This document shows, piece after piece, positions 7,615-52,926 of a stretch of DNA of 64,000 nt. The stretch comes from a virus. The position numbers and the translations under genes were made by a program. The notes under the pieces are model-generated. The model was not told the origin of the DNA and did not search any database. It saw only the letters and a program-made list of their open reading frames with translations. How positions within the stretch are numbered: position 1 is the stretch's first letter; each line of letters opens with the position of its first letter. The stretch lies in IMG/VR virus record IMGVR_UViG_3300005253_000361, positions 1-64,000 of that record. One strand, 5' to 3'.

Positions 7615-8340
7615 ATGCAGGATTTCTGTCGGGAACTTATTACCGCCACCTGGTCGCAACCGTACTTCATGTACTACGGGGACGCAGACCGGGATACCGA
7701 CGCGTTCACATTCAGCCGCACTCGAGACTCCAGTGTGCTGGAGATCAGCAACTTTGACACGGTCTACCGAGATCTCGAGGAGCGCTTCCCGAATGACGTC
7801 TGGATCGAGCAGTCCAGCCACTTCCTGTGCGGGTGGGTGGACAACATCGTGGTTCGGATGTTGACCGCGGGGGATGGTCCGCTTGGGGGGCCGCAACCGA
7901 CTGCGGCCGCCAGTGCGGTTCGGGAGTGGATCGATGCCCTGGCGGATTACCCGGTGGCGGACGACGGCGCGTTCAGCGAGGCCGAGTACGACGCCAAGGT
8001 CGAGACTCTCAGGTGGAACTTCGGGTGCGACCTCGAGGAAGCCGAGCTCGTGCTCCGGTGGATGCACCGCTGCGACACCCCTGGGGTGGATGCCTTCAGC
8101 GACGACTTCTGGCCCGAGCAGAGCGACGTCGATGTGGCGCTCCTGGAACTGGGGCTCCGGATGCAGTGCCGGGACTGCGGGGACGTGCTGGAACCGGACG
8201 AGGTGACGGAGCGACGAGGGGTCTGTCGGTTCTGCACCTACGGGTATCGGATCCGAAGCTGGTTCCGGGGCCTCCAGTCTCGGCTCCAGACCGAGTCCTT
8301 CCTGCGGCAGCGGAAGCGGTTCGGAATCACGCGGTACTGA
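7615..8340 (+). CDS. conserved phage hypothetical protein
   Basis: Complete upstream module; RDSSVLEISNF and LADYPVADD segments. Confidence 0.6.
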   Translation: MQDFCRELITATWSQPYFMYYGDADRDTDAFTFSRTRDSSVLEISNFDTVYRDLEERFPNDVWIEQSSHFLCGWVDNIVVRMLTAGDGPLGGPQPTAAASAVREWIDALADYPVADDGAFSEAEYDAKVETLRWNFGCDLEEAELVLRWMHRCDTPGVDAFSDDFWPEQSDVDVALLELGLRMQCRDCGDVLEPDEVTERRGVCRFCTYGYRIRSWFRGLQSRLQTESFLRQRKRFGITRY

Positions 8341-39854: not shown

Positions 39855-41009
39855 TTATGCTGTCGGTTGTTGGCGAATTGCGTCTTCTGGAGATTGAGCC
39901 CGAGCCAAGTGCTGCTGGATCGCCGCCATGGAGGTCCCGTTACCCTCAACTACACCGGCATACTCGTCAGCCTCACGCGCGGCCACAGGAAAGAACCGCA
40001 GAAACAGATCCCTCACCTGCTCGGGGCCCGGGCCTTCAATCTCCCAACGCTGATCTATGCGTCCGGCACGCACCAGCGGCGCCGGTAGAAGGTCTGCATC
40101 GTTGGCGGTGATAACCAGTAGCCGCCCCTCGGACGCGAGCGGCCCATCTATCGTGTTGAGCAGCCCTGCCAGCGTGACGCTCGTGTCGGTGCCGAAGTCG
40201 ATCTTCTCGATGTCCTCCAGCACCACCAGTGATCGCCCCGGCAACTGCGCCATGGCGCGAGCCAACGTGGCGTCATTGAAGTCATCCCCCTGCGACAGCG
40301 TGAGCACATACAGGGGCATTTGGTAGTGGCCGGCGATCGCCTGGACGAGCGAAGACTTGCCGTTTCCAGGGGGCCCCACGAGCAGGTATCCACGCCGATA
40401 CGGCAAACCCCGTTCCACGTGCCACGATCGAGCGTTCCGGAACCAATCAACATCATCGACGATCTCGTCCATCAGACCGGGGCGCAGCACTACCGATTCG
40501 AGTGGTCGCGGTTCGCCGACACGGATCTGTGACCATCCACCGTTCTGGTTATTGATGTACGCGACCTGCTTGCCGCGGCGGCGCAACATTGCCGCATCGA
40601 CCACGTCGTGCACGAGGGCTCGAATCGGGGACGGATCACGTCCCAGCGCTCGCAGGGTGATGGTCCGAGCCTTGGCGCCGGCATAGCCAACCTCTTCGAG
40701 AGTCTGGTGAAGAAGACACCAACGATTCTCGTAACGGAACACGTGCACGCCAAGGCCGGGCTCGAGCACCGCACGCGGCTCGTCTCGTTCGCCCTCGTAA
40801 GCCACGAACCCCGACAGCCTCCGGCAGCTACGGCCGTAGCTGGTCTCGGCGAGCCACTCGCCCATCCAACGCACGAACTCGGTGTCCATCGTGTAGAAGG
40901 ACGCGGTAAAGAATCTATCGAACACGTAGCGGGGCAGGTAGCGCACCGCAGCGGCTGCGGCACCGAGCGCCATGAGGTACAGACCGCCCTCGAAGAACTG
41001 GTTCTCCAT
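39855..41009 (-). CDS. BCS1-like AAA+ ATPase with N-terminal TM segment
   Basis: GLPYRRGYLLVGPPGNGKSS, LEDIE, AGLLNTIDG, RAGRID; LEPGLGVH resembles BCS1_N. Confidence 0.85.
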   Translation of the reverse strand: MENQFFEGGLYLMALGAAAAAVRYLPRYVFDRFFTASFYTMDTEFVRWMGEWLAETSYGRSCRRLSGFVAYEGERDEPRAVLEPGLGVHVFRYENRWCLLHQTLEEVGYAGAKARTITLRALGRDPSPIRALVHDVVDAAMLRRRGKQVAYINNQNGGWSQIRVGEPRPLESVVLRPGLMDEIVDDVDWFRNARSWHVERGLPYRRGYLLVGPPGNGKSSLVQAIAGHYQMPLYVLTLSQGDDFNDATLARAMAQLPGRSLVVLEDIEKIDFGTDTSVTLAGLLNTIDGPLASEGRLLVITANDADLLPAPLVRAGRIDQRWEIEGPGPEQVRDLFLRFFPVAAREADEYAGVVEGNGTSMAAIQQHLARAQSPEDAIRQQPTA

Positions 41010-41980
41010 TACGCCGTCTCTTTCTTCTTCTCGAACATCTTCGTGTAGTCCATCATGGGCCAGAACTGTCCCGCTACTCGGCCCGGGATCTTGTCGTAGG
41101 TGAATGGGAGCAGCCAGGGGTCCGGCTCGACGTGCACGATGTAACGGTGCTGGGTCTCGACGGAGCCGGCGTGCACGGTGAAGGCAGGCGTCACCACCTT
41201 GGCCCACCCGTGGCAGACATCCCACGCCATCGGGAGACTCAGCAGCTGGATCGTCGCCTTGCCGCCTCCGGGAGTGATCTCCTCCATGATCCGGATCCAT
41301 TCCTCGGCCCGGTTGATCGTGGCGCCACACTGGAGTTGACAGGTCAGGTGGAACATCACCCGGGCGCTCGCGTACCGGAGCATGTTGTTCGTGGCCGGAT
41401 GGGCCTTCACCTGCAGTACCTCTACAGGACGCTCCGGGGGATTCGCAATACTGTAGGGGCCGCCCACGTAGGGCAGCTCCAGCGCGCCAGGGGTGTTCTG
41501 GGCCGACTGCCAGATGGGGTCGCAGTACTCCGGCCAGTGCTGGTCAAAAAATCCGACACAACAAGGCGGGAAACCCAATAGATCTCCAATGGCGTTGTGG
41601 TTGGACTCCTCATGGGCTGCCTCGAAGGCATCGAGATTTGCATCATCGGGCGACACCACGGTGAACCAGGAGAAGTTCGGGTCACCCTCACGGAGCGGTG
41701 CGTGCCGGCGGTGGCTGAACCCATCGCTGGGGCCGACCGTAGTGAGCCGGCGCCACTTGAGTCCGTACCGCGCGAGTTTCTCGTACATCCTGTCACCGCC
41801 CACGTTCGGGATGTGGCAGGTACCGCAGGCACGAACACCATCGGCGGCCGTCTTGAGCTCCGCTTCCCAGCAGACACTGGAGGCCAGCTTGAAGGCCGGA
41901 CCCCAGTAGTCGCGCGCCTCGGAGGAGTGGTAGGTGATGCGGGTGAAGCTCGGGGCTTCGAAGTTCGGTAGGAGCTTCAT
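41009..41980 (-). CDS. hypothetical protein with GxLLGFPxCC motif (DUF483-like)
   Basis: IGDLLGFPPCCVGFF, HLTCQLQC. Confidence 0.55.
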   Translation of the reverse strand: MKLLPNFEAPSFTRITYHSSEARDYWGPAFKLASSVCWEAELKTAADGVRACGTCHIPNVGGDRMYEKLARYGLKWRRLTTVGPSDGFSHRRHAPLREGDPNFSWFTVVSPDDANLDAFEAAHEESNHNAIGDLLGFPPCCVGFFDQHWPEYCDPIWQSAQNTPGALELPYVGGPYSIANPPERPVEVLQVKAHPATNNMLRYASARVMFHLTCQLQCGATINRAEEWIRIMEEITPGGGKATIQLLSLPMAWDVCHGWAKVVTPAFTVHAGSVETQHRYIVHVEPDPWLLPFTYDKIPGRVAGQFWPMMDYTKMFEKKKETA

Positions 41981-42312
41981 CGGAGCCTCGCCAACCACAC
42001 AACCTTGCACGCGATGTGTAGGAACTGGTCTTCGTGAACGTTGATCCGGTTCTCGCACTTGGCGAAGTCGATCAGCCAATGCACCACCGTCTCAGCCGCA
42101 CCGAGATAAACGTTGCTGGTGATCGCCCACACGACACCGCCGTGAATGAGAGCGTGAGAGGATAGCCAGTAGGGCCAGCAAAGCGTGCAGGTTGCCCCCG
42201 GCGGTGTCGTGGTTCTGTTGTGTCGGTTCTTGCCCTTCGCCATCGCGTCGGACTGTAGGACGAAGTCCGCCAGGGCGTGCCCGATCAGTAGCGCGAAGAA
42301 TGTCTCGATCAT
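41977..42312 (-). CDS. DUF3307 membrane protein
   Basis: GHALADFVLQ, HALIHG, HWLIDFAK, DQFLH. Confidence 0.8.
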   Translation of the reverse strand: MIETFFALLIGHALADFVLQSDAMAKGKNRHNRTTTPPGATCTLCWPYWLSSHALIHGGVVWAITSNVYLGAAETVVHWLIDFAKCENRINVHEDQFLHIACKVVWLARLR

Positions 42313-42802
42313 TCGCCTAAACCTCCAGAGTCTCGGTCCAGTCCGACGGCAGCCGGGGCAACAGCTCATCCCTCAGCTCCCTATAGCTTTCCAGCGCGAC
42401 CGAATAGAGCCACTCCCGGCCGACAGGATCTCCGTAGGTCATCACAAGAGGCGATCCGTCTGCGCAGAAGGTGTTCTGGATGATCTTTTGCTGCAGGTAC
42501 ACCACCTGACCCAGCAGACGGATCGTTTGGTCTCGGTCGCGCAGGTCCATCTCAGCCTCCATCACACTGTCGATGGGGGTTGGTCCTGATTCTTGCCAAT
42601 CTTCTCGAGTTAGGATCATTGCTTGCTCTCCGGGTGAGGTAGAACAACCACCTCTTTGTAGACGATGTACTCGGGTAAGCCGGTCCAGCCGCAGGGCCAA
42701 CAGATCACGTCACCGCTGAACTGGATGTCGCTGCTGTTCAGATGGTCGAAGGTCTCCTCGTACACCTCGGTGCTGTCGCACTCCGGACAGTGGTACTTGC
42801 CG

Positions 42803-45319
42803 TCAGCCATTTGAATCTCCGTGGTCGTCGTAGTTGCCGTGCGGGACGTTGGCGTGCTCCAGTGGGTTCTTCTGGTGAGCCGCGTCCGCGTGGTCGCCGT
42901 GGTCGTCGTAGTTGCCGTGGGCCACATTCGCGTGGGCGGGATCGTTGGGATCGACAAGCTTCAGTTGGCAAGGGTTGCCGACCGGCGCATCCTCAGTCCG
43001 GACGAACTCAGAGTTCTTCGCCTCGCCTCGCCAGGCCGAGGGACGATACGTGTTGGCTTTCCGCAGCCAGCGGAACGGATCCCAGGGCGGTTCGTTCTGT
43101 TGGATCGAGTGGTAGAGACCATTGGCGTCGAACCGGTGCGCCACCTGGTCAAGTGTCGTGAGATTCGGGATGGTCCGGTGGAGATGGTCCGCTACCGCCT
43201 GATAGAGGCCGGCCCAGCCACGACAGAAGCGGGTGCGGTTGCGCCAGTCACCATCGATCGCGTGACCGTTGCAGTGGCCCGTGCAGACTGCCCACCAGCG
43301 GCACACCTGATCGCCGTCACGTCCATCCACACCGCCGAGGCATCCACCGTGCTCATGCGAGACGCCCCGCAGTATCTCGTAGCGAGCCTCGGAGAACTTC
43401 TTGTCCTCGGCTACCTGGTACGGGATCCCCCCGGCCGCATACAAATGTTCGCAAACTCCGATTGCCGAGTCCTCCTGGATGGTCCGTTCGGCAGCCGTGT
43501 GGAGAGGATCGCATTGGGTCCGAACGCATGTAAATTGGCCGCACCCGAGCAACCCGTCCATCGTTTCCGCGATGGCGGGAAACTGGTAACCCCGACTCAG
43601 ACTCCACGGCACAAACTCTGCCCAGAAGGCTGCCATATCGGTTTCGGAAAGCTCCCAGTCAGAGCGCTCCGGCTCGGTATCGATATGGGCGGGGTTGAGA
43701 CGTGGATTGCGAATACCGTGGTCGGCGAGCCAGTCGATGAACCGCTTCAACTCATCGATCTTCCGACGGTTCTGCCCCGGCACCAGACCCGGGCCGGCGT
43801 TAGCCTTGGTCAGGCAGATGATCAGACCGGGGGGCCGGTGCTCCCTGCAGAGCCGCAGGAGTGTCCGGAGCGTGGCGGCTGTGCCCTCCAGGGTGGTGCG
43901 TAGGGTGTTGCCCATCTTACGAACATCGTTCAGGCGCCCCCAGCCGTCGATCGAGAGCCCCACGTTGACGTTGTACCGCTTGAACATGGCCATGTGGTCG
44001 TCGTCGACCAGCACGCCGTTCGTCTGGATCGCGGCCTTGCCGAACCGCTCGTGGTTGATCCGAAAGATCTCCTCGAGGTCGGCCTTCTTGATCAGAAGAG
44101 GTTCGCCGCCGTGCGCGGTAGCTACCGCGGCGCCGCCCCGATTCTCTTCCTCCCAATCCCACTGGGCATTGATTGCCCGAATGGCCGCGTGGATATCGTA
44201 GTCGTGGGCCTTCTTGACGTTGCCGAGATCCCTGGCGGTGTTCTGGTAACAGTCCACCGAAAGAAACCCTCCAGCCACAAAGGTCTTACTGGTCGTCTCG
44301 ACATCATAAACTTCAGGGTCTCGCTTGTGTCCCATAGGCTCGATGGCCGTAATCTGAGCCCGGGGCGTCTTCGAAACTGCACCCGTAATCGCCACTTTGC
44401 GTGTGAGCGCCGGCCGACAAAGAGAAGCGAACCGTGCAACCTCAGGTCGGCCGCCCCGCATATAGACCCACCATGAATCGTCCGCCTTCTGGGCGATCCG
44501 GACATCGAACCCTAACTTCTCCCAGCAGTACCGAACCTCGTCAATAGCCTCCTGCTCCTTTTGGCAGATGCCAAGACCATTTCGGGTGCCTTCAGCGTCA
44601 AACATGCCTGCGAGCCACCCCTTAATGAATGGAGTACTCCTACCCATCGGAGGGGTTTCGGCGAGATCCATTAACGCGGTCAGGTCATCATTCCGGTGCA
44701 CGCGAGTAAGGTGACTGTAGGAAAGTTCGGCCCCCGTATCCTTTCGCTTGTGGTGCACGCGAGAAAGTTCAACGCCGAAAAGAGATTTGGCGTACAACTC
44801 TACTCGGTCCAGGAGTTCTTGATCCTTCGAATAGACCTTGAAAGTGCTTACGGGACCGCGCTTGCATACGTAATCCCCCCAGCTGCCGTCCCCAAAACTG
44901 ACCCCAGATAGCCACCCAGCTCGATAGTCGCTGTCCTGAGTAATGTCCTCCTTAACGGGGTCACACAAATGCAGGAACGCATCGCCTACCCGTAGGTCCC
45001 TCGTCCGGACCACACAATGGCGGTCCTGCCGCTTAACGAGCCACTCATGATCCGGTGTCGACTTGACCTCCCCTGCAGTCGTGGTGATGCGAATCAACCG
45101 CTCACGCTTGCGGATGAGGCGAATAACTTCCGTATCAACGTACCGTCGATACTTCTTGCCCTCCACAGCATCGAGTTCCCAGGAAACCAGGCGGTCCCCA
45201 ACCTCGACAGACTCGATGGGTTTCCAACTACCGTCGGTCAACAGCATCAGTGTGCCCTTGGCCAGACAGTGGCTACACGACAGGTTGCAGGCGCGCGTCA
45301 ACTTGGTTGATTGCGGCAA
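42803..45319 (-). CDS. radical SAM/SPASM peptide-maturase-like enzyme with intein and C-terminal His/Asp repeats
   Basis: CNLSCSH|C motif, HGGEPLL, IQTNG, GLSIDG, SPASM-type Cys array (CRWWAVCTGHC...RFC); TTG start with strong SD. Confidence 0.9.
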   Translation of the reverse strand: MPQSTKLTRACNLSCSHCLAKGTLMLLTDGSWKPIESVEVGDRLVSWELDAVEGKKYRRYVDTEVIRLIRKRERLIRITTTAGEVKSTPDHEWLVKRQDRHCVVRTRDLRVGDAFLHLCDPVKEDITQDSDYRAGWLSGVSFGDGSWGDYVCKRGPVSTFKVYSKDQELLDRVELYAKSLFGVELSRVHHKRKDTGAELSYSHLTRVHRNDDLTALMDLAETPPMGRSTPFIKGWLAGMFDAEGTRNGLGICQKEQEAIDEVRYCWEKLGFDVRIAQKADDSWWVYMRGGRPEVARFASLCRPALTRKVAITGAVSKTPRAQITAIEPMGHKRDPEVYDVETTSKTFVAGGFLSVDCYQNTARDLGNVKKAHDYDIHAAIRAINAQWDWEEENRGGAAVATAHGGEPLLIKKADLEEIFRINHERFGKAAIQTNGVLVDDDHMAMFKRYNVNVGLSIDGWGRLNDVRKMGNTLRTTLEGTAATLRTLLRLCREHRPPGLIICLTKANAGPGLVPGQNRRKIDELKRFIDWLADHGIRNPRLNPAHIDTEPERSDWELSETDMAAFWAEFVPWSLSRGYQFPAIAETMDGLLGCGQFTCVRTQCDPLHTAAERTIQEDSAIGVCEHLYAAGGIPYQVAEDKKFSEARYEILRGVSHEHGGCLGGVDGRDGDQVCRWWAVCTGHCNGHAIDGDWRNRTRFCRGWAGLYQAVADHLHRTIPNLTTLDQVAHRFDANGLYHSIQQNEPPWDPFRWLRKANTYRPSAWRGEAKNSEFVRTEDAPVGNPCQLKLVDPNDPAHANVAHGNYDDHGDHADAAHQKNPLEHANVPHGNYDDHGDSNG
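44252..45268 (-). mobile_element. intein (339 aa) with LAGLIDADG-type homing endonuclease
   Basis: Starts CLAKGT...WKPIESVEVGD; WLSGVSFGDGS and WLAGMFDAEG blocks; ends VYDVET...FVAGGFLSVD before extein Cys. Confidence 0.9.
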
Positions 45320-46005: not shown

Positions 46006-46346
46006 ATAGGTTCCCCCTCCTTTTTCCCTCGGTCGGCCGGTCCCTCAACCGACGCAGCTACTCTGCTAAATCACCGCGCCACTGTCCAGTGAACTCTCAC
46101 CGTCAGGAAGTTTTTATTTCCTCGCCCGTACGCTCGTTCAGCATCACGGTATTGCCGCAGACCGGGCAGCTGAACCGATCGCTCGTCTGGGGATCCCGAT
46201 GGGGTGGTACCCCGGTGAACATGTGGGCATAGGCGAGCCCGCCCCGGATGCCCTCGCAAGCAGCCCGCCAGACGGTTTCGCCGCAAGCCGCGCAGTCGAT
46301 GAAATCCTCCTTACGGAACAGCACTTCTGTCTCCATCTTCCCCCTC

Positions 46347-47747
46347 CTAGACCCCGATCTCGGTCGGGTCGTCCACGTAGGCCACTGACAGATTGTCGTC
46401 GTGGTTGTCGTGGGCGGTGTCGGTGTGTGGTGTCGCGTCCTGGTGCGTTACATCGTCGTGGTCGGTGTAATTTGAGTGGGCGGTGTCGTCGTGGTCCGCG
46501 TGGTTCGTATGGGCGGTGTCGTTGTGATCGTCGTGGTTGATGTGGGCTACATCCGCGTGATCCTGGTGGTTGTCGTGGGCGACATCCGTATGGTCGTCAT
46601 GGTTGGTGTGCGCGGTGTCGGTGTGGTCGGTGTGGTTCACGTGCGCGACGTCGTCGTGATCGCTGTAGTTGATGTGGGCGACGTCAGAGTGGTCCGTATA
46701 GTCCGCGTGGGCCGTGTTGTTGTGGGATGAGGTGTCGGTATGGGCCACATCGGTGTGGTCGGTGTAGTTGGCGTGTGAAGCATTAGTGAAGTCGTCGTAG
46801 TCGGAGTGCGCGACATCGCTGTGGTCGGAGTGGTCCGAGTGGGCTAGGTCCCCGTGATCGGTGTAATCGTCATAATCGGTATAATCCTCGTGGAATGGAA
46901 CATCGTCCCAATCATCGTGGTACGTCTGGTCGTGGCTATTGTCCAGATTGTCGTGCGCTACGTCGCTATGATCGTTCCAGTCGTCATGAACGACATCAAC
47001 ATGATCGTCCCAGTCGTCATAAGCGGTGTCGGTGTGGTTATTGATGTTGCTGTGCGCGACGTTGTTGTGATCGGACCAGTTGATGTGAGTGACGTCGCTG
47101 TGGTCCGAATGGTTCGTGTGGGCGGTGTCGGAGTGATCGGTGTGGTTGTCGTGCACCGTATCGGTGTGCTGGGTCGAGGTGTTGTCCACGTAGGCTGTAT
47201 CATCGTGATCCGAGATATCAGTATGGGAGACGTCATCGTGATCGGTGTAGTTGCTGTGGGCCGTGTCGGAATGGTCGCTGTAATTTATGTGAGCGACATC
47301 GGAGTGGTCTGAACCGGTGTTGTCGTCATGCGCGACATCGGCGTGGTCACTGTGGTTGTCGTGGGCCACGTCAGAATGATCTGAATGATTGTCGTGGGCC
47401 GCGTCGCCATGGTCGCTGTAGTTGGTGTGCGCGACGTCAGCGTGCCCAATTACCTCCCGGCCCGACTCGCCAATCCAACGCCAGCGACCGTTGCCGGTGT
47501 CGTCCTCGACCCAATAACTACCTTGTACCCCGTCGCTGTGCGACTGGATATCGATCGGGAGACGGCGCTCATCCCCAGTGGCGCTAACGTAGTGCCAGTA
47601 ATCCCCTTCTACCCAGTAGCTGCCCACGACTGCCGGACTCGGAGTCGAGACGTACTCGGCCGTCTGGTATTGCCACTCCGAGGCAACCTCGTCGATGAAG
47701 CACCAGTAGTCCCCCTCGACCCAGAACGATCCAGCAGTCTTAGCCAT
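46347..47747 (-). CDS. His/Asp-rich repeat protein (putative fibre-tip adhesin / maturase substrate)
   Basis: About 100-aa Trp-rich N-domain with three GS[FY]WVE[GD]D motifs, then about 30 eleven-residue HxN-[YHW]xD-HxD-xA repeats. Confidence 0.85.
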   Translation of the reverse strand: MAKTAGSFWVEGDYWCFIDEVASEWQYQTAEYVSTPSPAVVGSYWVEGDYWHYVSATGDERRLPIDIQSHSDGVQGSYWVEDDTGNGRWRWIGESGREVIGHADVAHTNYSDHGDAAHDNHSDHSDVAHDNHSDHADVAHDDNTGSDHSDVAHINYSDHSDTAHSNYTDHDDVSHTDISDHDDTAYVDNTSTQHTDTVHDNHTDHSDTAHTNHSDHSDVTHINWSDHNNVAHSNINNHTDTAYDDWDDHVDVVHDDWNDHSDVAHDNLDNSHDQTYHDDWDDVPFHEDYTDYDDYTDHGDLAHSDHSDHSDVAHSDYDDFTNASHANYTDHTDVAHTDTSSHNNTAHADYTDHSDVAHINYSDHDDVAHVNHTDHTDTAHTNHDDHTDVAHDNHQDHADVAHINHDDHNDTAHTNHADHDDTAHSNYTDHDDVTHQDATPHTDTAHDNHDDNLSVAYVDDPTEIGV

Positions 47748-47756
47748 CCCGACCCC

Positions 47757-48647
47757 CTATACGGTGACCCACTTGTTCGCCCCAATCGGAGCGATCGCTC
47801 CGGCGAGTCCCCTGAGGTTACGGCTCGAATCCACGACGGTCGTGGCACCGATCTGCAGACTGTCCGCCTCGAGCGTCGCGATACCGGTAATGTTGAAGGC
47901 GCCTGTCGCCCAATGGGCTGTAAGCGCGATCGAACCGCCGGCCCGAAGGAAGGCCGCGCTACTGAGACTGTCGAGCGTGTCAGCGTCCAAGCCGGTCTCG
48001 TTGACCGCGATCGTGATTTGATTCCCGGGGTTATCCGGGGTGATGACGATTTGGTTTCCAGCCACCAAGTTGACGTCCCCGCCTGAATTCGACACCCCGT
48101 CGATACTCGCGAGCGCGCCCGCTTGGGCCGCCGTTACGCTGTGGGGGTTCGAGGTCGAGGACACGTGAGGGTCGACATACCCCTTGGTCGTGAGGTCGTT
48201 CGACCCTGAAGGTGTGGCGCCCCGGACGATCGCGTAGGCCGAATCGCCCGCGTTGCGTGCCGCCACGACACCGGCCGCCTCCCGCTGGAACCACACATCG
48301 AGCGCAGAACCAACGCCGGCACCGAACGCAATACCGCTGCGGGACGCGTCAAGCTGCACCACCGGATTCGCATCACCGGCCGCCCCGTAGAGACTGGCAT
48401 CCACACCGACGTAGAAAACATCAGACGCAATCGGGATCCAGTCGGCCCCGTCGAAGCTGAAGTAGAAGATGTCCTCGTCGGTCGCCATGTACTGCTGCGA
48501 TACAGCTGGGGCCGCCGGTAGGTTCACCACGGGTCCGTAGTCCGCCTCGGTCATCGCGAGGTAGATGAAGTCGTTCAGGTCGGAGGCACGCGTGGTGGTG
48601 CCGACCGACACCTCATAGAGCGACAGATCACGGACAGGTGTTGCCAC
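47757..48647 (-). CDS. tail fibre protein, paralog 2
   Basis: N-terminus MATPVRDLSLY...ADYG paralogous to 51190..52926; DLTTKGYVD, SNPHSVTAAQ and LDADTLD fibre motifs. Confidence 0.75.
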   Translation of the reverse strand: MATPVRDLSLYEVSVGTTTRASDLNDFIYLAMTEADYGPVVNLPAAPAVSQQYMATDEDIFYFSFDGADWIPIASDVFYVGVDASLYGAAGDANPVVQLDASRSGIAFGAGVGSALDVWFQREAAGVVAARNAGDSAYAIVRGATPSGSNDLTTKGYVDPHVSSTSNPHSVTAAQAGALASIDGVSNSGGDVNLVAGNQIVITPDNPGNQITIAVNETGLDADTLDSLSSAAFLRAGGSIALTAHWATGAFNITGIATLEADSLQIGATTVVDSSRNLRGLAGAIAPIGANKWVTV

Positions 48648-50875: not shown

Positions 50876-51193
50876 CTACGCTGGGTTAAGGTCGGTTTCG
50901 TCTTCGGAGGTAGTGCCGGCGCCGAGCTTCCCGTCAGCCACCAGCTGGTCCAGCACGACCTGGCGCAGTCTTGGCTTGGCCCCAGAGAAGTCCTTTCGAT
51001 TTATGGCCCGGATCAACACCTTGGCCTCCGCACCATGGTAGGTATGCTGGGTCGGACGCTCCAGGGCGTCGTGGGTCTCGATCGACACCAGGTACTGATC
51101 CTCCGCGGGGGCGAAACGGAGACGGAAATCCACCACCTCTACGGTCGAGAGATCCACCATCAGAGGGGTGTCGAGTACTAGGGTTGCGCTCAT
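50876..51193 (-). CDS. small tail-associated protein
   Basis: Overlaps the stop of the fibre gene. Confidence 0.5.
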   Translation of the reverse strand: MSATLVLDTPLMVDLSTVEVVDFRLRFAPAEDQYLVSIETHDALERPTQHTYHGAEAKVLIRAINRKDFSGAKPRLRQVVLDQLVADGKLGAGTTSEDETDLNPA

Positions 51194-52926
51194 GCAGCCA
51201 ACTTCCTTTCGAGTTCGGCCACCTTGGCCTTGAGACGTCGGACCTCGGGTTCGAGCTTGTCGACACGAGGCATTAGTCGTTCAATGTCTGCTGTGTGCTC
51301 GTTGAATCCGGCCACCACCAGCGGTAGCACCTTGCTGTACTTCAGACCGAGGAACCCATCGGGGTCGGTATAGACCGCCTCAGGCAGAACCTTCTGAACG
51401 TCCTGCGCGATGAGGAACGCACGCCGTTGCCCTGCCGCCTTCGCGTCGAAGCGTTCCGATTCGATGAAGTACCCTGTCTCGGTGCGCAGCGTGCCGAGCT
51501 TACGGGTGGCGTCCACGATAGGCTCCAGGCCGGTCTTGAGACGCTCGTCCGAAACGGCCACCCACGCGGTCGCACCTAAGGTCAGGTCGACGCCACCCGA
51601 GCCTCCCGCGACGCAGCGAATCACATCGGCGGACACCTCGGTGAGATACGTGTTGCTGCCACCGTCGAGGTAGAGCTTCTTGGTGGACCCTAGCGACCAG
51701 TTCCCCATGACGCCACTGGTCTGTGCAGCCACGCGGAAGTACGCGGCCAAACCGCCACCGGTATAGATGTCGATGCGGTTGGCGCTGGACTCGGTGATGT
51801 ACGTGTCGCTGCCGCCGTCGAGGAAGAGCTTCTTCAACGGGTCTACTGACGCTGATTGGCGGAACTTCCAAATACCCGAAGTCGAGCTCACCATTACCGT
51901 TCCGCCGACTACAACTTGGTAGTTGTCTACGCTGGACTCGGTGATGTACGTGTCACCGCCGCCATCCAAGTAGAGCTTCTTGAGGGCCGACAGGTAGATG
52001 TCGTCGGTAAAGCTCCACTGGCCCGTGATGACCTCGGCAACCCCGACCTGCGGGACCCCAACAGCCGTGAGGTTGCCCGTGTGGACCAGAGTCCGGGTCG
52101 CGTCAGGCGTGATGGTCTCGTCGGCCGACAGGATGCCACTGAACTCGAGAAGCTGCGGATCACTACCGCCGGAGAACTTGAGCGCTCGCGCGTTGCCTGA
52201 CCAGCTGGTCGAGATCGATTTGTAATTCCCGGCCCCGTCCTCGTACACGTTGACCCCGATCAACCCGTACCCAGCCGTGAACTCCTGGATGCAGAAGTAG
52301 CTGCCGACCAGGATCCGGTCGTCCCGCAGGAGCGTGATGTCGGCCCCCGACATCTGAAGATCGCCCGTCATGATGCCGCCAGCCAGCGCGACAGCACCCG
52401 TCTGACCTGCCGACACCCCGTGCGGATTCGCGCCCGAGCTCGCATGGGTGTCATGGTGGCTCTTCGTCACGTAATCGTTGTCGCCGACCGGGGCGAGGCC
52501 GCGCATGATCCCGTAGGCACTGTTGGCGGCGTTACGGATCGCCACAACCTCGGTGGCCTCACGCTGGACGAAGGTGTCGTGCGCGTTCGAACCCCCTTGG
52601 CCGAACCCGACGGCTGTCCGGCTCGCGCTCAACTGGACCTTGGAATAGGTATCCGAGACGGCCCCGTAGAGATCCAGATCATCGCCCATCTGGACCTTGG
52701 TGCTCGCGATCGGCGTCAGGGTGCCGGCCTCGAGCGCCATGTAGAAGACCCCGCTGTCCGTGGCGAGATACTGCTGACTCACGGCGGGCGAACCCGGCCG
52801 GCTACCGTAGAGGCCGTAGTCGGTCTCGGTCAGGCTGAGGTAGAGAGCGTTGTTCTGATGGGATGCTCGGGTAGTGTTGCCCGGGCTAACTGTATAGAGC
52901 GATACGTCGCGAACCGGCGTGGCCAC
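51190..52926 (-). CDS. tail fibre with C-terminal intramolecular chaperone (peptidase S74)
   Basis: SDERLK...FLIAQDVQKVLPEAV...LKYSKV plus coiled coil; three KKL[YF]LDGGxxTY repeats. Confidence 0.85.
   Translation of the reverse strand: MATPVRDVSLYTVSPGNTTRASHQNNALYLSLTETDYGLYGSRPGSPAVSQQYLATDSGVFYMALEAGTLTPIASTKVQMGDDLDLYGAVSDTYSKVQLSASRTAVGFGQGGSNAHDTFVQREATEVVAIRNAANSAYGIMRGLAPVGDNDYVTKSHHDTHASSGANPHGVSAGQTGAVALAGGIMTGDLQMSGADITLLRDDRILVGSYFCIQEFTAGYGLIGVNVYEDGAGNYKSISTSWSGNARALKFSGGSDPQLLEFSGILSADETITPDATRTLVHTGNLTAVGVPQVGVAEVITGQWSFTDDIYLSALKKLYLDGGGDTYITESSVDNYQVVVGGTVMVSSTSGIWKFRQSASVDPLKKLFLDGGSDTYITESSANRIDIYTGGGLAAYFRVAAQTSGVMGNWSLGSTKKLYLDGGSNTYLTEVSADVIRCVAGGSGGVDLTLGATAWVAVSDERLKTGLEPIVDATRKLGTLRTETGYFIESERFDAKAAGQRRAFLIAQDVQKVLPEAVYTDPDGFLGLKYSKVLPLVVAGFNEHTADIERLMPRVDKLEPEVRRLKAKVAELERKLAA

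Follow-up and report, generated by a model that had tools for sequence, protein, structure and literature searches.

Why should a phage radical S-adenosylmethionine (radical SAM) enzyme end in a stretch that reads like the repeats of the protein encoded beside it? The question is raised by the virus record IMGVR_UViG_3300005253_000361 of IMG/VR, a single contig of 117,123 bp, of which the first 64 kb (positions 1 to 64,000, hereafter the window) were analysed. On the minus strand, the window encodes the enzyme (42803..45319) and a repeat protein, hereafter the partner (46347..47747; all features are given in Table 1). An earlier note on this DNA had proposed that the C-terminal tail of the enzyme carries the HxN-YxD-HxD pattern of the partner and is the strongest link between the two genes. 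That interpretation was partly supported, since the resemblance and the two-gene link are both real. The tail is very probably a selected feature of substrate type. Our best explanation, which we hold only tentatively, is a module that would staple the partner through cyclophanes, with the tail as a tethered mimic of the substrate.

Likeness of the enzyme tail to the partner repeats

Positions 42803..42940 of the minus strand encode P-AHANVAHGNYDDHGDHADAAHQKNPLEHANVPHGNYDDHGDSNG-stop, the C-terminus of the open reading frame (ORF) 42803..45319, whose 838-aa product terminates in ...DPNDPAHANVAHGNYDDHGDHADAAHQKNPLEHANVPHGNYDDHGDSNG. The tail consists of two 11-residue units with a following HGD, HANVAHGNYDD-HGD and HANVPHGNYDD-HGD, with HADAAHQKNPLE in between. 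Both units lie within the final 44 residues of the enzyme and keep the 5-3-3 register of the partner, whose array contains about 25-30 units of 11 residues, each with three aromatic-x-D/N triplets spaced 5, 3 and 3. The whole 466-aa partner has 90 such triplets.

A position-specific scoring matrix (PSSM) derived from 25 partner units was run against the complete 117,123-bp genome, taking in all 171,183 11-mers from every six-frame ORF of 30 aa or longer. Scores of 29.8 and 22.9 bits were obtained for the two tail units, against 12.7 bits for the best 11-mer outside both genes, and the first tail unit falls within the score range of the partner's own units. Only two ORFs genome-wide had at least four H.[DN] within 40 aa, namely the repeat protein and the enzyme with its tail. 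It should be noted that hmmsearch with an 11-position hidden Markov model of the partner units did not report the tail; we read this as a limit of the method, and the PSSM scan did report it. At the DNA level, tail units were on average 63% identical to partner units (maximum 82%), and partner units were on average 61% identical to one another (maximum 88%). Both the matrix scores and the nucleotide identities assign the tail units to the partner's repeat family. The resemblance of tail and array in this phage is thereby confirmed, and the pattern that the earlier note had described is indeed shared.

These near-equal identities, and the finding that the tail in the window is the most partner-like among 52 tail-partner pairs, would suit a tail without function, left over from slippage or from gene conversion by the repeat gene nearby. 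However, the longest match in a blastn comparison of tail and partner DNA covered 32 nt at 84% identity; as there was no long identical stretch, recent copying of the repeat gene was rejected as the origin of the tail. The tail also lies at the far end of the enzyme gene, away from the repeat gene, is kept on very divergent enzymes (10 versus 38 changes on the tree described below), and has an HGD bias of its own. We consider a functionless tail extremely unlikely.

Tails and arrays among relatives

A tblastn search against phage records found the enzyme in three Thermus phages at 32-34% identity. The gene order in phage Cumys is tail collar fibre, hypothetical protein, Cumys_13, radical SAM enzyme and DUF483-domain protein. 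Cumys_13 is encoded immediately upstream of the enzyme; it shares the three repeats of the partner's N-terminal part, and an H-x-D array follows them; the N-terminal domain of the partner is common to Cumys_13 and 34 viral loci. The Cumys enzyme ends in EHGDYTDHGDAPHGDHWDG, and the enzyme of phage phiLo likewise ends in H-x-D triplets. A search of 5.8 billion proteins gave 343 matches, and 16 of the 120 listed had at least three H.[DN] in the last 50 residues. These 16 include the window's own protein and its four closest relatives among the matches listed, which have a two-part tail ending in ...DHGDS with the same 5-3-3 spacing.

A locus search with a single enzyme sequence recovered no viral relative; a search with the homologue alignment A1 did. 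Since A1 was built from sequences picked for having a tail, its invariant tail columns are there by construction. Scanning IMG/VR with this alignment gave 79 loci, 78 of them with a complete enzyme C-terminus, and the last 45 residues contained at least three H.[DN] in 67 of these enzymes, one or two in 6, and none in 5. A genomic scan, covering one genome per prokaryotic species, gave 80 loci, where 16 of 77 enzymes ended in at least three H-x-D/N triplets. The tail is thus kept when homologue C-termini are compared, the check that the earlier note had proposed. Nor is it a generic His-rich end off the repeat register, the alternative raised in that note: tails share the triplet grammar of the arrays and their spacing of 3, 4 or 5 residues (24, 20 and 39% in tails; 10, 16 and 41% in arrays), with the 5-3-3 register as the local form in the window. 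The median distance is 76 residues from the SPASM motif GDWRN to the start of the tail, and 6 residues from its end to the stop codon. An ORF with at least 15 H.[DN] ended no more than 700 nt upstream of the enzyme ORF in 66 of the 78 viral loci. This gene order ties the two genes together more strongly than the tail does; the link that the earlier note saw in the tail is real, but it is not the strongest one.

To count tails and arrays together, a dense array was defined as at least 8 H.[DN] in 100 aa, leaving out the annotated phages (L001, L002), loci with an enzyme cut by a contig end (L081, L135) and loci with an enzyme ORF shorter than 330 aa (L017, L078, L109, L158). Among 76 viral loci, 65 had both tail and array, 1 had a tail without an array, 10 had an array without a tail, and 0 had neither; the corresponding numbers for 77 genomic loci were 15, 1, 38 and 23. 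A dense array was present in 80 of the 82 tailed loci, and the two exceptions lie on contigs of 4.0 and 3.0 kb. Enzyme and array thus occur together as a general rule, with a dense array in 128 of 153 loci; tails belong mainly to the viral branch. Some of the 23 array-less genomic loci have small ORFs with 4-7 triplets. A metagenome scan with the homologue P0003 returned six loci outside these counts (L162-L167) but not the contig of P0003 itself, and its best match had 34% identity.

Two side observations concern individual loci. In the viral locus L017 (6875..8140) the enzyme ORF is broken, with the HGD tail encoded by its own ORF further downstream (7640..8140), suggesting a frameshift or a sequencing error. 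In the genome loci L082, L087, L091, L099, L105, L110 and L159, bacterial tail-less enzymes lie behind proteins of ~1,370-1,390 aa without an assigned family, whose last ~100 residues form a ...PH-x-D-T... array (examples end in ...PHVDT...PHGDT...); the large array protein of L091, the one checked, had no Pfam match.

A phylogenetic tree of the enzyme core was built with FastTree from 114 of 140 rows (rows at least 85% identical were removed), with the tail columns excluded and a midpoint root. Tail presence required 10 state changes on this tree, compared with a mean of 38 for shuffled labels, and 0 of 500 shuffles were as low. Tailed enzymes occur on most of the deep viral branches and span branches more than 2 substitutions per site apart, and tail-less enzymes fall mainly into one large genomic cluster. 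As the tree is midpoint-rooted, we claim no direction of tail gain or loss.

The same relatives bear on the possibility that the tail is a docking or co-assembly handle for the array or for the DUF483-like protein, one that would hold the enzyme on a long, leaderless substrate and never enter the active site. We found no RRE-type (RRE, RiPP recognition element; RiPP, a peptide made on the ribosome and modified after translation) N-terminal domain in the family, in which the CxxxCxxC motif begins near residue 11, and no evident leader on the arrays of the family loci; both absences would suit such a handle. So would 40 longer homologues (560-740 aa) with a C-terminal extension, where the 110 aa that follow the SPASM domain contain at most one H-x-D; by eye, their extension ends in a G-L-S-F-A-Y-type motif resembling the ends of DUF483-like proteins. 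None of the DUF483-like ORFs in the loci carries an H-x-D cluster, so that the tag is on the enzyme only, which would likewise suit a handle; the idea of a tag shared across the module was rejected on this ground. However, many unfused tail-less enzymes adjoin a DUF483-like gene, indicating that the tail is not needed for that partnership, and the covariation of the tail with its own partner is weak (see below). A pure docking role seems unlikely to us.

Enzyme class and candidate chemistry

The match of the enzyme to PF04055 (Radical_SAM), 37.7 bits against a cut-off of 29.5, places it in the radical SAM superfamily. An intein lies inside the cluster motif (CNLSCSH / intein / CYQN), so that CNLSCSHCY would be formed only once the protein is spliced, and the +1 Cys after the intein is the third ligand of the CxxxCxxC cluster. 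The closest intein-free homologue, P0002, reads CNLGCSYCYQT at this site. No intein was found at this site elsewhere in the family: of the 120 proteins listed, Pfam intein domains are confined to P0001, the window's own cluster. The GGEPLL motif is invariant in the homologue alignment. Eight Cys after the core are invariant in alignment A1, and C-x2-C-x5-C-x3-C is present in most homologues, as in SPASM domains; in this clade an insert of 10 residues follows the first of these Cys.

A PDB search with a profile of 16 homologues matched anSME with an E value of 4e-27 over profile positions 3-355, that is, the whole core. The AlphaFold2 (AF2) model of P0002, which is 45% identical to the enzyme at 99% coverage, had a mean predicted local distance difference test score (pLDDT) of 79.4, and its top Foldseek matches were ChlB (3.5e-13) and anSME (3.9e-13). 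The reference list of PMC12912966 refers to ChlB as a 'multiple cyclophane synthase'. Judged by the profile search and by the fold match of a predicted model, the enzyme resembles anSME and the cyclophane synthase ChlB. Seven of the top ten NCBIfam matches of the C-extein were maturases that form cyclophane or ether cross-links (XyeB, YhhB, DynA, FxsB, AmcB, GrrM/OscB and DarE). In the P0002 model the core is confident and residues 429-516, the tail region, have pLDDT below 50; the tail is predicted to be disordered.

The triceptide synthases (ChlB, HaaB, HtkB, YhhB, YxdB, OscB and XyeB/XncB) are like the enzyme here in combining radical SAM and SPASM domains, and they provide the best NCBIfam and Foldseek matches. 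Their substrates contain aromatic-x-X triplets, often repeated, and the partner is likewise built of triplets. According to the literature on these enzymes, HtkB, HaaB and YhhB join C2 of His to the C-beta of the residue at +2 (PMC11499958), YxdB joins C3 of Tyr to the C-beta of Asp, and OscB joins C7 of Trp to the C-beta of Asn or Asp (PMC11002830). The substrates of triceptide synthases are short leader-core peptides, whereas the arrays here belong to leaderless proteins of 180 to ~2,300 aa, and the substrate is taken to be a protein of 200-1,500 aa carrying tens of triplets, in the setting of tail fibres or baseplates. The passages on triceptides in the same two papers do not include H-x-D among the motifs or mention a substrate-like enzyme tail. 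The other close relative, anSME (4K36-4K39), is the best PDB profile match, lacks an RRE domain like the enzyme here, acts on a protein and abstracts a C-beta hydrogen. However, anSME oxidises Cys or Ser to formylglycine in a sulfatase motif, and the arrays conserve neither Cys nor Ser.

In the arrays, the proportion of residues with Asp or Asn at +2 is 95% for His, 43% for Tyr, 27% for Trp and 20% for Phe, compared with 3-8% for any non-aromatic residue; the figure for His is partly built into the way arrays were delimited, and those for Tyr, Trp and Phe are not. These frequencies bear on another reading, in which the tail would bind metal (Fe, Zn or Ni), either to feed or protect the three Fe-S clusters or to bridge the enzyme to a metal-loaded array fibre. 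The needle of T4 gp37, a metal-stacked His-x-His fibre, would be a model for such an array, and metallochaperones have His-rich disordered terminal tails akin to that of the enzyme. His and Asp are the only conserved side chains of the tail, with Asp at the third triplet position (X3) in 98% of tail triplets, compared with 91% of array triplets, and mostly Gly at the second (X2). The tail is terminal besides being predicted disordered, and its HGD bias, which sets it apart from the arrays, points to a constraint of its own. However, Tyr, Trp and Phe replace His in register in the arrays, and since Trp and Phe cannot bind metal, an aromatic-x-Asp/Asn modification site fits better than a pure metal site. 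In its i/i+2 triplets and their spacing the tail matches the arrays, unlike a generic poly-His stretch; the tail-less enzymes of the family need the same clusters; and no role is evident for a dedicated enzyme of the cross-linking type next to an array that does nothing but bind metal. We regard metal binding as a rather unlikely explanation of the tail.

The pairing of enzyme and array, together with the homologies described above, suggests that the enzyme probably modifies the arrays; by analogy with the triceptide synthases the chemistry may be cyclophane formation, a case that we see as evenly balanced. The mechanism that we propose would work as follows. A module in the tail-fibre region would comprise an aromatic-x-Asp/Asn array protein, one radical SAM/SPASM enzyme resembling anSME and the enzymes that form three-residue cyclophanes (3-CyFE), and a DUF483-like protein. 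The enzyme would abstract the C-beta hydrogen from the Asp or Asn of each triplet, and this C-beta would be joined to the imidazole or other aromatic ring two residues upstream, giving a three-residue cyclophane. Many such cross-links would staple a virion-associated array protein. The tail would be a tethered substrate mimic, a flexible recognition motif offered at high local concentration, and would reach the active site within the same polypeptide or that of another copy of the enzyme, either to undergo modification there or to act as a placeholder until the long array displaces it.

Borosin enzymes are a precedent for a tail as tethered substrate, since the enzyme domain acts on a core peptide located at the C-terminal end of the same protein (PMC7878506). 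We see borosins of the OphMA type as the clearest precedent for a maturase with its own substrate, but the likeness is one of architecture only: they are SAM-dependent N-methyltransferases rather than radical SAM enzymes, and their tail is the sole substrate and is released as product, whereas the enzyme here has a separate, much larger substrate protein. The tail may act as a tethered substrate or pseudo-substrate that enters the active site, which we take as its most likely role, though with less than even confidence. More speculative is a version in which the virion protein is stapled with dozens of His/Tyr/Trp-to-Asp/Asn cyclophanes and the HGD tail is a true self-substrate, linked in cis or across a dimer, that switches the enzyme (e.g., priming, timing or release from the array); this seems doubtful to us.

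Several findings weigh against the stapling mechanism with a tethered mimic. The enzyme gene is split by an intein that has the Hint and LAGLIDADG_3 domains, Cys1, TPDH as block B TxxH and the +1 Cys but ends in Val-Asp rather than the His-Asn of class 1 inteins; enzyme activity in this phage would depend on an unusual splice. The NCBIfam scores of the C-extein are far under the curated cut-offs (XyeB 58.9 versus 450 bits, YhhB 56.0 versus 445, FxsB 41.2 versus 370, GrrM 34.4 versus 310), placing the enzyme outside the curated 3-CyFE families of the XyeB, YhhB, FxsB and GrrM/OscB models. DynA scored 50.5 bits, and anSME (sulfatase_rSAM) scored 47.7 bits versus a cut-off of 349. Clusters of His and Asp are classic metal ligands. 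AF2 left the tail undocked in cis; when the P0002 core (1-428) was modelled in complex with SAM, three 4Fe-4S clusters and, as its own chain, the tail (429-516), the score was 0.01 (mark 0.32), which weighs neither way. Of the scored loci, 48 (10 viral, 38 genomic) combine an array with a tail-less enzyme, so that the tail is not required for the enzyme-array pairing and is accessory.

The composition of the tails counts on the same side. Gly occupies X2 in 71% of 326 tail triplets but in only 17% of 3,643 array triplets, and this HGD bias indicates a constraint of the tail's own. When 6-mer similarity was compared among 35 clusters (enzymes less than 60% identical), the tail's own partner had a mean rank of 15.5 versus 18 expected (permutation p 0.047). 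Across the 52 non-redundant tail-partner pairs the correlations were weak for Asn (r 0.25, p 0.07) and for Pro before His (r 0.33, p 0.016), and none was found for Gly or non-His aromatics. Strong covariation of the tail with its own partner was thus not borne out by the rank test or the feature correlations, both of which gave only weak signals. Family-wide, the tail is a motif of its own with an HGD bias, and only loosely, rather than closely, a copy of the cognate repeat. The window's tail, the most partner-like of the 52, is a single case: Asn at X3 has a frequency of 0.44 in its tail and 0.24 in its partner (median of tails, 0.00), non-His aromatics have 0.22 and 0.23 (median of tails, 0.00), and the pair ranks 2 of 35 in the 6-mer test. 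As a side observation, the viral loci L016 and L022 have basic tails (H-R-D, H-G-N and H-N-N with Lys) and partners with P-H-T-D/P-Y-S-H-T units, a tail clearly unlike its cognate array.

Related modules and gene neighbourhood

Kolesnik et al. (Viruses 2024, PMC11437467) described an 'rSAM module' in the Thermus phages Cumys and phiMa and proposed that it modifies DNA. It consists of the same three genes in the same order beside tail and baseplate genes, and the radical SAM proteins share 34% identity (E 8e-35). As judged from homologues of all three genes, the window locus is a member of this Cumys/phiMa-type phage module. The text of PMC11437467 describes neither His-x-Asp arrays nor an enzyme tail; the intein and the three ORFs between the array and enzyme genes belong to the window locus.

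If the module modified DNA and not protein, the His/Asp sequences would be unrelated to the enzyme substrate. Some cyanobacterial homologues are reported to lie near deazapurine DNA-modification genes, and DUF483 to occur fused to methyltransferase or radical SAM domains (PMC11437467), which would suit that suggestion. However, the dense H-x-D array stands beside the enzyme in most of the scored loci, the closest relatives, solved as well as curated, all have peptide or protein substrates, and the word 'histidine' occurs 0 times in the text of PMC11437467, where His repeats go unmentioned. We find a DNA substrate very unlikely.

A likeness of another kind is offered by the HXS antiphage system, in which, according to Li et al. 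(Nat Commun 2026, PMC13128918), the His-x-Xaa repeat protein HxsA is matured by radical SAM enzymes. HXS has five H-x-S repeats, two radical SAM enzymes (HxsB/HxsC) and HxsD, and is a bacterial periplasmic defence effector, whereas the locus here has H-x-D/N triplets and one radical SAM enzyme. No Hxs model was found among the 25 NCBIfam families listed of the 33 matched by the full protein, nor among all 20 matched by the C-extein.

A full-text literature search, with the supplements of PMC11437467 (figure S5 and gene tables) outside it, found no paper on H-x-D arrays with a radical SAM enzyme or on the tail. If the stapling mechanism were right, many phages and bacteria would apply to large structural proteins a chemistry known only from small peptide natural products (the 153 scored loci range from Thermus phages to soil metagenomes). 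This would be the first RiPP-type C-C cross-linking of a virion protein, and, should the tail be a self-substrate, the first radical SAM maturase with a built-in substrate. The enzyme would recognise a leaderless repeat directly, which bears on how radical SAM maturases find their substrates. Cross-linked arrays could also account for fibre stability in thermophilic phages and would offer a new kind of protein staple for engineering, and the published suggestion of DNA modification would need revising. The conserved substrate-like tail provides a simple experimental handle.

Table 1 Coordinates of the enzyme, its partner and neighbouring features in the window.
Feature	Coordinates	Strand	Basis or remark
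Radical SAM/SPASM enzyme precursor, 838 aa, with intein	42803..45319	-	Pfam Radical_SAM, LAGLIDADG_3, Intein_splicing
N-extein, 17 aa, ends CNLSCSH	45269..45319	-	First two Cys of CxxxCxxC
Intein, 339 aa, Hint and LAGLIDADG endonuclease, CLAKGT...FLSVD	44252..45268	-	Domain matches; comparison with intein-free P0002
C-extein, 482 aa: radical SAM core, SPASM, helical C-terminal subdomain, linker, tail	42806..44251	-	Homologue alignment, profile search, AF2/Foldseek
C-terminal tail of the radical SAM enzyme	42803..42940	-	Two repeat units, PSSM scores, 9 aromatic-x-D/N triplets
Partner protein, 466 aa	46347..47747	-	N-terminal part with three GS-x-W-V-E-[GD] repeats, then triplet array
Triplet array, partner residues 102-451	46395..47444	-	~30 units H-x-D-[VT]-A-H-x-[ND]-[HYW]-x-D
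BCS1-like AAA ATPase (BCS1_N, AAA, AAA_lid_BCS1)	39855..41330	-	Directly downstream of the DUF483-like gene, same strand
DUF483-like protein (start codon uncertain)	41009..42079	-	Homologous to Cumys_11 and phiLo_141; motif LLGFPPCC and later H/C cluster conserved
DUF3307 membrane-type protein	41977..42369	-	E 2.8e-11; between enzyme and DUF483-like gene
Small zinc-ribbon-like ORF, 64 aa	42616..42810	-	ATG overlaps the enzyme stop codon (ATGgcTGA)
Small Cys-rich zinc-ribbon-like ORF	46103..46336	-	After the array gene; with 42616..42810 flanks the module
Short fibre-like protein	47757..48647	-	N-terminus (MATPVRD.SLY...) common to the tail fibre 51190..52926; ends 10 nt before the partner gene
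Tail fibre protein with Peptidase_S74 chaperone domain	51190..52926	-	PF13884; 21 PHROGs, mostly tail fibre

The enzyme and array genes of the window lie downstream of tail-fibre genes, and three small ORFs separate the two. The partner itself had no match in Pfam, NCBIfam, PHROGs or PDB (searched by sequence). Across the loci, arrays are mostly C-terminal on their proteins. Pfam and PHROGs searches of 8-9 large partner proteins gave a weak tail-fibre match for L015 (E 1.9e-6), and a virion structural protein match and a Laminin_G_3 domain for L028. The ESM Atlas contains the partner letter for letter, with a model of predicted template modelling score (pTM) 0.16 and pLDDT 0.38; such low confidence would fit an array whose folding has to await modification, metal binding or assembly.

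DUF483-like ORFs were present in 65 of 81 viral or phage loci, and the Pfam DUF483 match of the window's protein had an E value of only 0.26. In alignment A3 of the DUF483-like proteins, C173, C174 and C251 are invariant and H244 and C247 nearly so; these residues could be ligands of a metal or of an Fe-S cluster. For the DUF483-like protein, the confident AF2 model (pLDDT 84.8) gave no Foldseek match at E of 0.001 or below, and the best VIA-align hit (Z 7.0) was 2guk, a protein of unknown function. Many viral DUF483-like proteins are ~450-490 aa long, and the consensus of their C-terminal extension contains D-x-G-x-G, which we take to resemble a SAM-binding motif.

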